Source of the DNA: Gammaproteobacteria bacterium
GTDB lineage: Bacteria > Pseudomonadota > Gammaproteobacteria > Eutrophobiales > Eutrophobiaceae
Reading direction: 5' to 3'
DNA: 64,000 bases
Assembly: GCA_965215365.1 (NCBI GenBank)
Contig: CBDCDS010000003.1
Location: 2,528,001-2,592,000, forward strand
Below the pieces are notes generated by a model. The model had not been told where the DNA came from. It worked only from the letters and a program-made list of their open reading frames with translations, and did no database searches. The translations under genes were made by a program, and so were the position numbers. This document shows, one piece after another, positions 55,453 through 64,000 of the stretch (positions are counted from its first letter, which is position 1; each line of letters begins with the position of its first letter).

Positions 55453-55481
55453 TTGACAACCACTCGGATTTGTTGTACTAT
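55453..55481 (+). promoter_or_regulatory. Near-consensus sigma70 promoter of the sterol operon
   Basis: TTGACA-17 bp-TACTAT, 45 bp before the first gene. Confidence 0.75.
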
Positions 55482-55526
55482 CGCCTCGGTCTCAATTAAC
55501 AAAACAGTCAGAAGCGAACTCCTAAC

Positions 55527-56627
55527 GTGCCCACCGAAACATCAACCGCCTCAGCTGCGCCGCCGGTTTTCCTCACCGGCGCGGCCGGTCATGTCGGCGC
55601 CAACCTGTTGCGACGCTTGCTTGATGATGGCGTGCGCGTGCGGGTATTGCTGCGCCATGAGGACAATAACGAGGGCCTGGAAGGTCTTGACGTTGAACGC
55701 GTGTACGGCGATATCCGTAATCTCGATGAGACCCGGCGCGCGCTGGAGGGTTGTCAGGGTGTTTACCACGTTGCCGCCAAAATTTCGACCATTGAAGGCA
55801 ATCTGGCGCACCGCCGGGAAATATACGAGTGCAATGTGATCGGTACCCGCAACGTGCTGCAGGCGGCACGCGAAACTGAAGCCGGCCGGGTGGTAGTAAC
55901 CGGCTCGTTCAGCGCCGTGGGATACGATCTGGACAACCCGTCCGCACCCGCGCACGAAAACATGCAGTTCTACCCCATGGAGCGCACCATGCCTTACGAG
56001 CGCAGCAAGTCATTGGTGGAGCATGAGTGCTGGCGCGCCGCGGCCAGGGGCCAGGATGTGGTCGTCGCCACCTGTTGCGCAGTAGTTGGCGGCGCGGATT
56101 TCTTCCCGTCGCGCCTGGGCCGCACCTTGTGCGACTATTCCCACGGCAAACTGCGCGCGTATATCGAGGGCGGTTTCGAGTTTGTCGCAGCCAGAGACAT
56201 CGTAGCAGGGCATGTGTTGTGCATGCACAAAGGACGCTCCGGAGAAAAGTATATCTTCAGCAGCGAATACAAGACCATCTCCGAGATCGTGGCCATGTTC
56301 GAAGAGGTGTCGGGCGTGCCGCAACCCGCGCGCCGGATTCCGTCGCCGGTGATGCTGGTCTTCTCAGAGGTGGCCAGCTTTTACCTGAGTCGCGCGCACC
56401 CGGACTTCCCCCAGCGCTTTACGCCCGGCGCCATCCGCCTGCTGCGTAAGCGCCTGCATGCCAATACCAGCAAGGCCCGACAGGAATTGGGCTACCAGCC
56501 CACCAGCATCCGGGATGCCATGCACGAGGCCTACGCGTTTCATTATCACCAGCGCAAGGTGATTACCAATCCCGCGGCGCGACCGCCGCGCGCCAACGGC
56601 GCGGAATCGACGCATGGGGCGCAATAG
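55527..56627 (+). CDS. Extended SDR / 3-beta-HSD-like enzyme, SdmB-like sterol C-4 decarboxylase/reductase
   Basis: TGAAGHVG, YHVAA, YERSK (YxxxK); paired with a Rieske oxygenase in a sterol operon. Confidence 0.75.
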   Translation: MPTETSTASAAPPVFLTGAAGHVGANLLRRLLDDGVRVRVLLRHEDNNEGLEGLDVERVYGDIRNLDETRRALEGCQGVYHVAAKISTIEGNLAHRREIYECNVIGTRNVLQAARETEAGRVVVTGSFSAVGYDLDNPSAPAHENMQFYPMERTMPYERSKSLVEHECWRAAARGQDVVVATCCAVVGGADFFPSRLGRTLCDYSHGKLRAYIEGGFEFVAARDIVAGHVLCMHKGRSGEKYIFSSEYKTISEIVAMFEEVSGVPQPARRIPSPVMLVFSEVASFYLSRAHPDFPQRFTPGAIRLLRKRLHANTSKARQELGYQPTSIRDAMHEAYAFHYHQRKVITNPAARPPRANGAESTHGAQ

Positions 56628-63200: not shown

Positions 63201-63632
63201 ATTGCCGCCGGGGCGCGCCCGGGCGACCCGGCGTTGCGTCTGGCCTGCCGCTGGCTGCTGGAACGTCAACGGGAGGACGGCGGCTGGGGCGAAAGTCTGC
63301 ATGGTTGCCTGAGCGGCGAGTACGTTCCACATGAGGAAAGCCAGATTATCCAGAGCGCCTGGGCGCTGATTGCACTGCTTGAAGCGGGCGAATCAAACTG
63401 GCCCATGATTGTGCGCGGCATCCGTTATCTGGCCGCCACTCAAAATGAGGACGGAAGCTGGCCCAGGCAGGACATGGCTGGCGTGTTTTTTCGTACCGCA
63501 ATGTTGGATTACGTACTGTATCGGCAGTACTTTCCTCTGCACGCGCTGGGTTTGTACGAACGGCGGCGGCGGGCGCGGGCGGAGCTGGCGCAGTCGCTCA
63601 ACCCATTACCAAAACCTGATGGTGTTACCTGA
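60237..63632 (+). CDS. Squalene epoxidase-oxidosqualene cyclase fusion protein
   Basis: N-terminal half: VGAGPVG, RLAGEWLHP, GADGRSS, GDAAGHYHPLTAVGMT. C-terminal half: QGDDGAW, IPSWGKFWL, WYCHTR, HGWPVSDCTAE, LNPAEMFG, YVECT, QW repeats. One uninterrupted frame from ATG 60237. Confidence 0.93.
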   Translation: MSSLAAERYDVAIVGAGPVGSLCALAHAQKGARVALLEANPKASLRLAGEWLHPPAVRMLRAVGIAIDEQPRSSTGEGFAVFPEDGSEPIVLPYPKGECGVACDHTALVARLHEAVEDEPDIDFLLHAKVREVEDGQLAFARNGTLETLAATSIVGADGRSSVVRQSLGLPGKRIPCSRMVGVVVEDAELPVKGYGHVLLGAPGPILAYHTGARHVRIIADIPLDHWSPKDRANLLSESYAELLPEALKAGFIKAVQSGKFHAAANELRPRVSYGTWQRTLIGDAAGHYHPLTAVGMTLGFGDALMLAKCQNFNEFKRQRFRDIRAPELLAMGMYEVFADHRGEAVALRTAMYQNWLKLPIVRDRTMRLLACEDRSIVRLGLATCVTALRALTTQTPHTLNRLAWRRTGDVMGALASRVVWFLHGVDILSKLRRNGDNMENRFREVLARSFLISVPPEKTGVEPAAPKDTISFDASPALHKAGARLLSLQGDDGAWEGEMVWCPMLTAQYVLLQHLLEQPIEAGRRRRILRSFACSRLDNGLWSLHEHPPANLFVTTLVYVAARLLGLEQDDTLLKPAQRFLQAEGVRAIPSWGKFWLALLNLYDWRGVNAILPELWGLPRRLPLHPSNWYCHTRLIYMAMASVYAHRYQAPVTTTIAALREELYPQGYEQVDFVAGRNDLRAGDLFARPGVWLRAGYALTRLYERYHNKRLRNQCLEALRGQISWELQSSSHTSISPVSGFLNILALWLRDPDDADCRQALAKLDDWFWEDEEHGARVTGARSSSWDTGFALQALATAPDVAGAPKAMRKGAEALRNQQIQVSFEGYKEAYRNDPQGGWCFPGGWHGWPVSDCTAEAALGIMAVQGAATNPEMLAAAARFMLRSQNRDGGFGSYEAQRSRFDLEWLNPAEMFGESMTEHSYVECTASCMAALAACREHAPQSLPEAAPDAMSRAESWLRNTQSSDGSWRGVWGVQFIYGTLFGIRGLIAAGARPGDPALRLACRWLLERQREDGGWGESLHGCLSGEYVPHEESQIIQSAWALIALLEAGESNWPMIVRGIRYLAATQNEDGSWPRQDMAGVFFRTAMLDYVLYRQYFPLHALGLYERRRRARAELAQSLNPLPKPDGVT

Positions 63633-64000
63633 TGACACAGACACGCGAAAAAAGCAAAAAACCTGGTTTTCTTGGGGATCTGGCTTCGCATGAAATCAAG
63701 TCGGTGGTCAATGAATACCGTGAGTTACATGATGCCGACCTGACGCATAGAAAGGAAAGCTATCAGAAACTCGTCAACCACTACTATGATCTGGCCACCG
63801 ATTTCTACGAGTTCGGGTGGGGTCAGTCTTTCCACTTTGCCCCCGGGCGACGCGGCGAGAGCTTCAAAGATGCGTTGCTCAGACATGAGCTGTTCCTGGG
63901 CGGGAAGCTGGAGTTAAAGTCAGGCATGCAAGTCCTGGACGCAGGCTGCGGAGTGGGCGGGCCAATGCGCAATCTGGCCCGCCATACCGGTGCCAGTATT
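63632..64000 (+). CDS. Sterol C-24 methyltransferase (SMT/ERG6 family), truncated by window end
   Basis: Not in the ORF track; manual translation from ATG 63632 (TGATG overlap): MTQTREK...LVNHYYDLATDFYEFGWGQSFHFAP...RHE...VLDAGCGVGGPMRNLA, i.e. SMT region I plus the SAM-binding motif. Confidence 0.92.
   Translation, partial: MTQTREKSKKPGFLGDLASHEIKSVVNEYRELHDADLTHRKESYQKLVNHYYDLATDFYEFGWGQSFHFAPGRRGESFKDALLRHELFLGGKLELKSGMQVLDAGCGVGGPMRNLARHTGASI

Follow-up and report, generated by a model that had tools for sequence, protein, structure and literature searches.

The closest described relatives of the locus analysed here are sterol gene clusters of sponge-associated bacteria. In the msb cluster of a gammaproteobacterial Melophlus symbiont (PMC7074536, 2020), six genes are described as encoding an NAD(P) oxidoreductase (msbA), a Rieske oxygenase (msbB), a membrane sterol reductase (msbC), a lanosterol C-14 (there C30) demethylase (msbD), a bifunctional squalene epoxidase/cyclase with a diagnostic valine (msbE) and an S-adenosylmethionine-dependent sterol C-24 methyltransferase (SMT; msbF). 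Judged from that published description, the same gene order is present at the 3′ end of the 64,000-nucleotide stretch of DNA examined here (hereafter, the window), which covers positions 2528001–2592000 of contig C3 in a gammaproteobacterial genome (G000; 2.73 Mb in three contigs, GC 0.58, 97.6% complete). In the clusters termed CSGs of Ircinia sponges (PMC9531527, 2022), an ERG24–CYP51–LSS core is placed after a “dihydroflavonol reductase” (a short-chain dehydrogenase/reductase, SDR) and a “hypothetical protein” (a Rieske protein), as here; this core is reported from 115 of 537 Ircinia sponge metagenome-assembled genomes (MAGs) in 10 phyla, and its gene trees disagree with the genome tree, indicating horizontal transfer. 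The bacterial SMT clusters described in PMC10070321 (2023) also resemble the present locus, in that SMT, in uncultured bacteria some of which come from sponges, is accompanied by sdmAB and erg homologues; fused SMO/OSC (oxidosqualene cyclase) homologues are mentioned there, and bacterial SMT and ERG2 are discussed in PMC8237579. Because of these published msb, CSG and SMT clusters, we regard the operon in the window as a new example of a known arrangement and not as a discovery. A reading of the window made earlier from the sequence alone (the sequence-only reading) had treated C-24 alkylation as a eukaryotic trait and thereby implied novelty; this part of it is out of date, since both bacterial alkylation and the same layout are found in PMC7074536, PMC9531527 and PMC10070321.

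We consider it probable that the locus is a functional, horizontally circulating sterol operon of the kind known from sponge-associated bacteria, lying in a 2.7-Mb gammaproteobacterial genome, and we expect with much the same confidence that its genes would work together in sterol synthesis de novo, with a 24-methyl(ene) Δ7 sterol as the last product. The sterol block consists of seven genes with eight predicted activities. Six of these genes were recognized in the window by open reading frame (ORF) listing, Pfam and NCBIfam, all of them on the + strand between 55527 and the window end. The first encodes an SdmB-like NAD(P)-dependent SDR (55527–56627; GTG start; NCBIfam NF052578; Pfam Epimerase and 3Beta_HSD) and is separated by a 42-nt gap from the gene of an SdmA-like Rieske oxygenase (56670–57812; NCBIfam NF052579; Pfam Rieske and VanA_C). 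The latter overlaps by 14 nt with the gene of an ERG4/ERG24-family sterol reductase, a predicted C-14 reductase (57799–58878; Pfam PF01222; PDB 4quv), and after a further 3-nt gap the gene of a predicted CYP51 sterol 14-alpha-demethylase follows (58882–60240; assigned from PDB relatives and the heme-Cys motif). The CYP51 stop codon forms an ATGA overlap (60237–60240) with the start of a gene encoding a fusion of an N-terminal squalene epoxidase and a C-terminal OSC (60237–63632; Pfam and NCBIfam TIGR03463), the stop codon of which shares 1 nt with the SMT start in a TGATG overlap (63630–63634). The window includes the first 123 codons of SMT (63632–64000).

To follow the operon beyond the window, 20 kb of the same contig were read as L002, in which the coordinates equal the window coordinates minus 54999. 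The SMT gene continues to window-equivalent position 64666 (L002 8633–9667), the Sterol_MT_C domain being present in the full 344-aa protein, and its stop codon forms an ATGA overlap with the start of a co-oriented gene for a predicted ERG2-type C-8 isomerase of 187 aa (window-equivalent 64663–65226; L002 9664–10227; ERG2_Sigma1R). The sequence-only reading had described six co-oriented ORFs with tight or overlapping junctions and had expected the operon to run past the window, and both statements were borne out; the frameshift in SMT beyond the window that it had named as a possible objection was not found, the 344-aa ORF being complete.

The first two enzymes resemble the C-4 demethylase of methanotrophs. 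Methylococcus capsulatus combines SdmA/SdmB-type C-4 demethylation with a bacterial CYP51, as the present locus appears to do. The best NCBIfam match of the SDR was SdmB (NF052578, 291.2 bits) and that of the Rieske protein was SdmA (NF052579, 402.9 bits), in both cases nearly over the full length and by a wide margin over other models, but the equivalog cut-off of 600 was not reached by either, which indicates that these proteins are related to, yet outside, the methanotroph SdmA/SdmB equivalogs. The SdmA/SdmB pair named in the sequence-only reading thus stands as far as the best matches and the adjoining position of the two genes inside a sterol gene cluster are concerned, but not at the level of the curated equivalogs. 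SdmAB homologues are reported to carry out C-4 demethylation, with one methyl removed in methanotrophs, two in Calothrix and a third protein required in Enhygromyxa (PMC10202945). We predict that the SDR is the C-4 decarboxylase/3-ketoreductase partner and the Rieske protein the 4-methylsterol monooxygenase, whereas the authors of the msb study, who were concerned with sarasinoside formation, considered MsbA/B in C-23 oxidation (PMC7074536).

The reductase matched PF01222 with 247 bits (cut-off 27), and its best solved relative was the delta(14)-sterol reductase 4quv (E 2.8e-66); its predicted target is the Δ14 bond, a Δ7 or Δ24(28) bond being a conceivable alternative. For the P450, the 56 best of 59 PDB matches were named CYP51 or 14-alpha-demethylase, the top ones, 7jj1/6mcw, at E ~1e-108 over the full length, and the heme-Cys motif FGGGKHRCVG is present. 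No NCBIfam CYP51 model was matched, and every P450 model with a match scored far under its cut-off. The closest solved relatives of the protein are 7jj1, 6mcw and 6mi0, which we take to originate from Methylococcus. The locus differs from those of methanotrophs, in which CYP51 is described as fused to or co-localised with a ferredoxin and an NTF2-like 8,14-Bsr leads to Δ8(14) sterols with, in the account given, no canonical C-14 reductase (PMC13277303). Here, CYP51 carries no fused ferredoxin domain, and it is accompanied by an ERG24-type reductase, a fused squalene epoxidase–OSC, an SMT and ERG2.

In the fusion protein, Pfam detected the squalene epoxidase domain SE (PF08491, 82 bits), FAD_binding_3 (PF01494, 75 bits), SQHop_cyclase_N and SQHop_cyclase_C, and NCBIfam detected TIGR03463 (2,3-oxidosqualene cyclase) with 718 bits. 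The protein comprises 1131 aa when read from ATG 60237 and 1155 aa when read from TTG 60165. In an alignment with four congeners, conservation began at about residue 31 of the longer TTG frame; together with the ATGA overlap with the CYP51 stop codon, this makes ATG 60237 the most likely start. The GxGxxG stretch VGAGPVG was invariant in all five aligned sequences. The cyclase half matched human lanosterol synthase (1w6k) with an E value of 5e-124 and retains the SDCTAE context of the catalytic Asp (human D455). By hand count along the 1w6k alignment, the residues at the human columns are Ala 381, His 449 and Val 453; the reference pattern is T381, C or Q449 and V453 for lanosterol, and Y381, H449 and I453 for cycloartenol. 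Among bacterial OSCs that have been tested, position 453 alone is reported to have tracked the product, Val corresponding to lanosterol (PMC4919349), and this valine was also the one relied on in the msb study (PMC7074536). The Val at column 453 makes lanosterol the likely cyclase product, and the mixed pattern over the three columns keeps this from being certain.

The 123-aa fragment of SMT in the window carries the motif YEFGWGQSFHF, and with this fragment Pfam reached CMAS alone. The full protein matched Sterol_MT_C (PF08498) with 77 bits against a cut-off of 21.7, and the methyltransferase domain PF08241 with 69 bits. When the residues listed as conserved in functional SMTs in a preprint by Brown and Welander (10.64898/2025.12.19.695621) were mapped by counting from conserved anchors, all 25 were found to be kept, including Region I GWGxxFHF, Region II DxGxGxxGP, E195 and G217; the corresponding columns were conserved in 103–120 of 120 SMT homologues. 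The sequence-only reading had called the SMT from YEFGWGQSFHF, and this call is confirmed by the domain in the full protein together with the 25 residues. In Region I, residue 81 is Tyr and residue 83 is Phe. Of 8000 candidates that were scored as homologues of SMT, 3620 had E ≤ 0.001, and the 119 top-ranking ones other than the protein itself were 64–73% identical. At position 249, propylating bacterial SMTs are described as having Gly, which is reported as required, though not enough by itself, for 24-isopropyl formation, a G249N mutant making C29 but not C30 sterols (10.64898/2025.12.19.695621). The SMT studied here has Asn at the mapped column, where the 120 homologues have D (54), N (51), T (8), S (4) and G (3); variation of this kind is also reported in the preprint, and the agreement supports the mapping of 249, which is otherwise inferred. 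Considering the Asn, we expect the enzyme to catalyse methylation, perhaps ethylation as well, but no propylation. SMTs of symbionts are reported to methylate desmosterol in vitro (PMC10070321).

The ERG2 protein matched PF04622 (ERG2_Sigma1R) with 211 bits against a cut-off of 21 and the structures of the sigma-1 receptor with E 6.5e-35, and it was about 50–52% identical to a fungal C-8 sterol isomerase. It had 340 homologues, including an “ERG2 family protein” from a gammaproteobacterial MAG and one from Bradyrhizobium. The presence of ERG2 after SMT distinguishes the locus from the msb cluster, where the genes at both ends are described as unlike sterol genes (PMC7074536). Substrate for the epoxidase could be supplied by a squalene-synthase-like gene on contig C1 (SQS_PSY, 196 bits; best NCBIfam match, squalene synthase). 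The FA_hydroxylase family, to which the C-5 desaturase ERG3 and the C-4 methyl oxidase ERG25 belong, had no match in the 97.6% complete genome, and a tblastn search of the genome gave no second copy of ERG4/24, SMT proper or ERG2 (the EBP, DHCR24 and C-22 desaturase families were not searched for). From the missing FA_hydroxylase and second ERG4/24, the pathway probably stops after the Δ8 to Δ7 shift. The sequence-only reading had suggested that a C-8 isomerase, a C-5 desaturase and further reductases be sought downstream; the isomerase was found there as ERG2, and neither a C-5 desaturase nor a second ERG4/24 reductase was detected in the genome.

The stretch C1:13668–21420 (L099) contains the squalene synthase gene with HpnG-like and HpnL-like genes beside it, as well as an SDR paralogue of the HpnA/SdmB-like type, and tblastn detected a second cyclase paralogue at C3:1717088–1718953, 27% identical to the OSC half of the fusion. 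In view of the HpnG-like and HpnL-like neighbours of squalene synthase, the second cyclase was taken to be a squalene–hopene cyclase, and the strain probably makes hopanoids alongside sterols.

In the pathway that we propose, squalene made by the squalene synthase encoded elsewhere in the genome would be epoxidised by the N-terminal half of the fusion and the epoxide cyclised by its C-terminal half, most likely to lanosterol. CYP51 would then take off the C-14 methyl, the ERG24-type reductase would saturate the Δ14 bond, SdmA/SdmB would strip one or both C-4 methyls, SMT would methylate C-24 and the ERG2-type enzyme would shift Δ8 to Δ7. The sequence data show which genes are present, that they are intact, the families to which they belong, their conservation and synteny, and that the assembly junction is real; the enzyme activities, the sequence of reactions, how many C-4 methyls are lost, how often the side chain is methylated, transcription from the proposed promoter and any role of the sterols in the cell are inferred. 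The last two steps have a precedent, because episterol or 24-methylenelophenol is described as the product of SMT and ERG2 acting on zymosterol or 4-methylzymosterol (PMC8237579). The expected end product is thus a C28 sterol of the episterol or 24-methylenelophenol type, with C29 sterols possibly formed as well, and not a 24-isopropyl sterol. Homologues of ERG1, ERG7, ERG11, ERG24, ERG6 and ERG2, which serve the fungal route from squalene to episterol, are all present at the locus. It departs from the fungal route in that ERG25/26/27 are replaced by the unrelated bacterial SdmA/SdmB, in that ERG1 and ERG7 are fused, and in that no route to ergosterol-type Δ5,7,22 sterols is evident. Synthesis of C-24-alkylated sterols from squalene, as proposed in the sequence-only reading, is supported at the sequence level by squalene synthase, the Asp and Val of the OSC, the CYP51 relatives and the intact SMT.

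Several points weigh against this interpretation. The SdmA and SdmB scores lie below the NCBIfam equivalog cut-offs, and SdmAB homologues are reported to vary unpredictably, removing one methyl, two, or none without a third protein (PMC10202945). The cyclase shows mixed residues at the three product-determining columns (Ala 381, His 449 and Val 453). Position 249 of SMT was mapped by counting from anchors and not by alignment to the yeast protein, and four SMTs with the conserved residues are reported to have been inactive in vitro nonetheless (10.64898/2025.12.19.695621). In addition, the operon has no redox partner for CYP51 or for the Rieske oxygenase, and the promoter proposed for it (see below) is a consensus match alone.

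Instead of a membrane sterol, the operon might make the aglycone of a specialised metabolite, for example a sarasinoside-type glycosylated nor-lanostane saponin. The homologous msb cluster of the Melophlus symbiont speaks for such a product: the sarasinoside sterol core has been proposed to come from it, and the glycosyltransferases are placed at another locus (PMC7074536; cited in PMC9531527). In the 20 kb read around the present operon no glycosyltransferase was found (the rest of the genome was not searched for a glycosylation locus), the SdmAB, SMT and ERG2 steps fit the primary-sterol route to episterol (PMC8237579), and the core is reported from many taxa and host sponges with a low omega of 0.13–0.26 (PMC9531527). 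We consider the saponin explanation improbable. Somewhat less probable still is that the enzymes mainly remodel sterols taken from a host or from food instead of building them de novo. The titles of related records do point to a sterol-rich animal host, and SMT, ERG2, ERG24 and SdmAB could in principle use exogenous intermediates. However, the translationally coupled epoxidase–cyclase fusion and the squalene synthase in the genome form a full entry from squalene, and the substrates of CYP51 and ERG24 are early intermediates, which hosts do not accumulate.

Related loci were sought by a pattern scan based on the fusion alignment, with one genome per species; the counts below refer to the 80 best of at least 503 confirmed relatives, some of these loci being cut by contig ends. 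The fusions of these 80 were 60–81% identical to that in the window. Almost all were titled as MAGs, many with sponge-related names, and the titles named Gamma- and Alphaproteobacteria, Nitrospirales, Binatia, Acidimicrobiia, Chloroflexi, Bryobacterales, Nitrospinaceae and others. The full SdmB–SdmA–ERG24–CYP51–fusion core was found in the same order in 58 of the 80 loci; an SdmB-like SDR (70–89% identical) was present in 63 and an SdmA-like Rieske protein in 65. Identity to loci titled Nitrospirales, Alphaproteobacteria, Binatia, Chloroflexi and others was 60–69% for the fusion and 70–84% for SdmB, whereas the flanking genes for PBP4 (a D-Ala-D-Ala carboxypeptidase) and a 4′-phosphopantetheinyl transferase (PPTase) matched at the same-genus locus only (1/80). 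Such similarity across phyla suggests horizontal spread of the operon.

Within the stretch read, SMT was present in 48 of the 80 loci and ERG2 in only four. In CSGs, SMT or squalene synthase is described as usually lying on the opposite strand at the 3′ end, and no ERG2 is named in the account of them drawn on here (PMC9531527), whereas SMT is here co-oriented and translationally coupled; of the 80 loci, 11 had the plain core-plus-SMT form with SMT co-oriented, and in 22 SMT lay on the opposite strand. In some related loci (L067, L022, L031 and L077), the core operon was accompanied by two or three paralogues of SMT. An alphaproteobacterial MAG carried three SMTs in a row (63, 48 and 48% identity), and a Nitrospirales core had three around it. 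These multiple-SMT loci recall the plant SMT1/SMT2 duplication, which is needed for 24-ethyl sterols.

In the sampled genomes, the fusion was present in 10 of the 22 other species of the genus, and in none of two other genera of the family and none of 16 other families of the class. The five-gene core was found in the same order in congeners G005, G006, G008, G021, G014, G002 and G020. ERG2 followed SMT in G000, G005, G008 and G021 and stood directly after the cyclase in G006, G002 and G020, so that it appears as a regular 3′ member of the operon in the genus, a feature that we report as new and that may already be visible in Supplementary Data 1/Fig. 3 of PMC10070321 or in the supplementary information of PMC8237579.

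Thirteen of the 22 other species of the genus had an SMT homologue at E < 1e-60, only three of them with an identity of at least 66–67%, and G006, which has the closest cyclase relative (83% identity), carries the operon with ERG2 but no SMT. Nucleotide identity between G000 and G005 was 0.78–0.83 for every other operon gene and 0.67 for SMT, the drop coinciding with the gene borders, and the corresponding protein identities were 67% for SMT, 81% for the cyclase and 85% for ERG2; the SMTs of G005 and G008 were an unremarkable 72% identical. In a quick tree of 85 SMT rows, the three SMT types of the genus did not group together, and the G000 protein joined two metagenomic proteins at 72–73% identity. 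An approximately unbiased (AU) test on 34 selected rows disfavoured the genus SMTs as one group (p-AU = 0.027). For this test, 34 of the 85 rows were chosen after the quick tree to represent its clades, and 51 were dropped, including G021 (99% identical to G008) and distant paralogues with 41–51% identity; the genus group, defined by kinship, was tested after the tree had been seen, and G000 and G005 form long branches. For these reasons the p value is moderate evidence only. We conclude that the SMT of G000 looks exchanged and that its position looks like a slot, which is empty in some congeners. The slot with its exchanged-looking allele is, with ERG2 as a regular 3′ member and a solo insertion sequence (IS) end of an IS481-like element abutting the promoter-like site, what the present locus adds to the published clusters.

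Congeners without the 66–67% SMT (G002, G020, G015, G018 and G013) had other SMT-like genes, 39–49% identical, beside P450 and Rieske genes. These were often located near the same PBP4/PPTase neighbourhood, and G002 has two of them, 6 kb apart. They are possibly alternative cassettes for tailoring the sterol side chain.

We tentatively suggest, as a possibility and no firmer, that in this genus the operon is a modular platform in which ERG2 is fixed and the SMT slot is empty (G006, G002 and G020), filled (G005, G008 and G021) or occupied by a different, apparently exchanged allele (G000). Alkylation would then be swapped gene by gene among sponge-associated bacteria. If this were true, such symbionts could directly supply 24-alkylated Δ7 sterols for which the host or algae commonly receive the credit. 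A separate point of possible novelty is the IS481-like element described below, whose end lies 5–6 nt upstream of sigma-70-type promoters far beyond chance. No paper was found on exchange at the SMT slot of this operon, nor on promoter-adjacent IS481-like insertions, the latter without a targeted search.

Side-chain-alkylated steranes serve as fossils of eukaryotes and early animals, a reading that bacterial operons like this one make contested. No principle is established by the locus that was not known before; its merit is to be clean and complete, with squalene synthase, seven adjacent genes and eight predicted activities in a nearly closed 2.7-Mb genome. As such it is a convenient candidate for heterologous reconstruction of the full bacterial route to a C28 Δ7 sterol, and the comparison within the genus (operon with SMT, without SMT and with a different SMT) offers a natural experiment on the gain and exchange of C-24 alkylation.

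We also analysed the 5′ edge of the operon, where synteny with congener G005 breaks at 55.45 kb; the upstream genes of G005 map about 245 kb away in G000, and the downstream genes are collinear. A solo copy of the terminal sequence (about 31 nt) of an IS481-like element was located at 55417–55449 on the + strand, overlapping the yscO stop codon and ending 3 nt before the −35 box of the promoter-like site described below. Allowing up to four substitutions, the 31-mer occurred 38 times on contig C3 and not at all in 1 Mb of shuffled sequence; full copies of the element encode a 341-aa HTH_32/rve/LZ_Tnp_IS481 protein (for example, L104 1289–2314). The stretch or part of it was present in 12 sequencing runs from six studies, 10 of these runs containing at least half of the sampled words. 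In metagenome contigs, depth rose about nine-fold in the bin of the junction, and loose ends were seen at 55417–55455. The recurrence of the 31-nt IS end, 38 times in the genome, accounts for this depth spike. A 21,888-nt contig (run X4) and a 4,724-nt contig (run X5, from a different study) span 54001–56003 with no differing letters, from which it follows that the 55.5-kb junction is no assembly chimera. These data indicate that the 55.45-kb junction is a real rearrangement scar marked by the IS end, and the chimeric join near 55.5 kb that the sequence-only reading had named as a danger was not found. That the operon is an assembly artefact or eukaryotic contamination, to which the synteny break with the closest fully read congener, the depth rise and the loose ends might have pointed, can be practically dismissed, given the bridging contigs of two studies, the repeated IS end, the even GC over the junction, the downstream synteny kept with congeners (PBP4, PPTase, thiL and ribD) and the bacterial features of the genes (start/stop overlaps and no introns).

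A conserved cross-phylum leader upstream of sdmB was also considered as the cause of the depth spike. A 280-nt stretch, composed of 250 nt upstream of sdmB and the initial 30 nt of the gene, was compared with the same stretch in 62 other loci; blastn-short found nothing, and this candidate was rejected, the IS end explaining the spike.

The promoter-like site just downstream of the IS end is of the sigma-70 type (TTGACA-N17-TACTAT, 55453–55481, + strand) and agrees with the consensus at 10 of 12 positions. It was the best of 10 sites in a 16-kb scan, where 6.2 ± 2.4 sites were expected by chance, and for this reason we take it as a hint only. The near-consensus sigma-70 promoter proposed in the sequence-only reading is thus present and ranks first in 16 kb, but similar sites are expected by chance, so that transcription from it is suggested at most; no RNA run is listed among the sequencing runs that contain the operon stretch.

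The IS481-like element is present in dozens of copies in the 2.7-Mb genome, and the window contains another occurrence at 24167 on the − strand. Its final 16 nt occur 57 times in the genome. In 21 of the 57 copies, a sigma-70-like promoter that agrees with the consensus at 9 or more of 12 positions starts 5–6 nt past the IS end, as against 0.19% of random positions, and an exact TTGAC lies within 10 nt of the IS end in 14 of 57 (background, 1.1%). These frequencies point to a preference of the element for insertion just upstream of promoters, or to a promoter-associated module.

In contigs of two runs from related strains (X6 and X10), one base is missing at 55523, which lies four bases upstream of the GTG with which the SdmB-like gene begins. 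Both strains show many transitions upstream (X6, 88 differing letters in 1.4 kb) and few within the operon.

On the 3′ side, ERG2 is followed by the gene for the PBP4-type carboxypeptidase, then by that for the PPTase and then by unrelated genes. The start codons of PBP4 and PPTase each begin at the final base of the preceding gene's stop codon, and the two genes may be co-transcribed with the sterol block; no known sterol role connects either of them to it. The interval between PPTase and thiL (window-equivalent 67356–70620; L002 12357–15621) contains genes for a circularly permuted ATP-grasp protein, an alpha-E domain protein and a proteasome-type subunit, and G005 has no counterpart of this stretch at that position. 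On the 5′ side, the stretch directly upstream of the sterol operon, annotated with Pfam only, encodes a SpoIIE-phosphatase/HATPase/HAMP protein (51157–53628), a type III secretion/flagellar-type ATPase with a T3SS_ATPase_C domain (53635–54957) and a YscO-family protein (54845–55438). The region 51157–55438 seems to be a portion of a type III secretion cluster, the bacterium being a probable symbiont of an animal.

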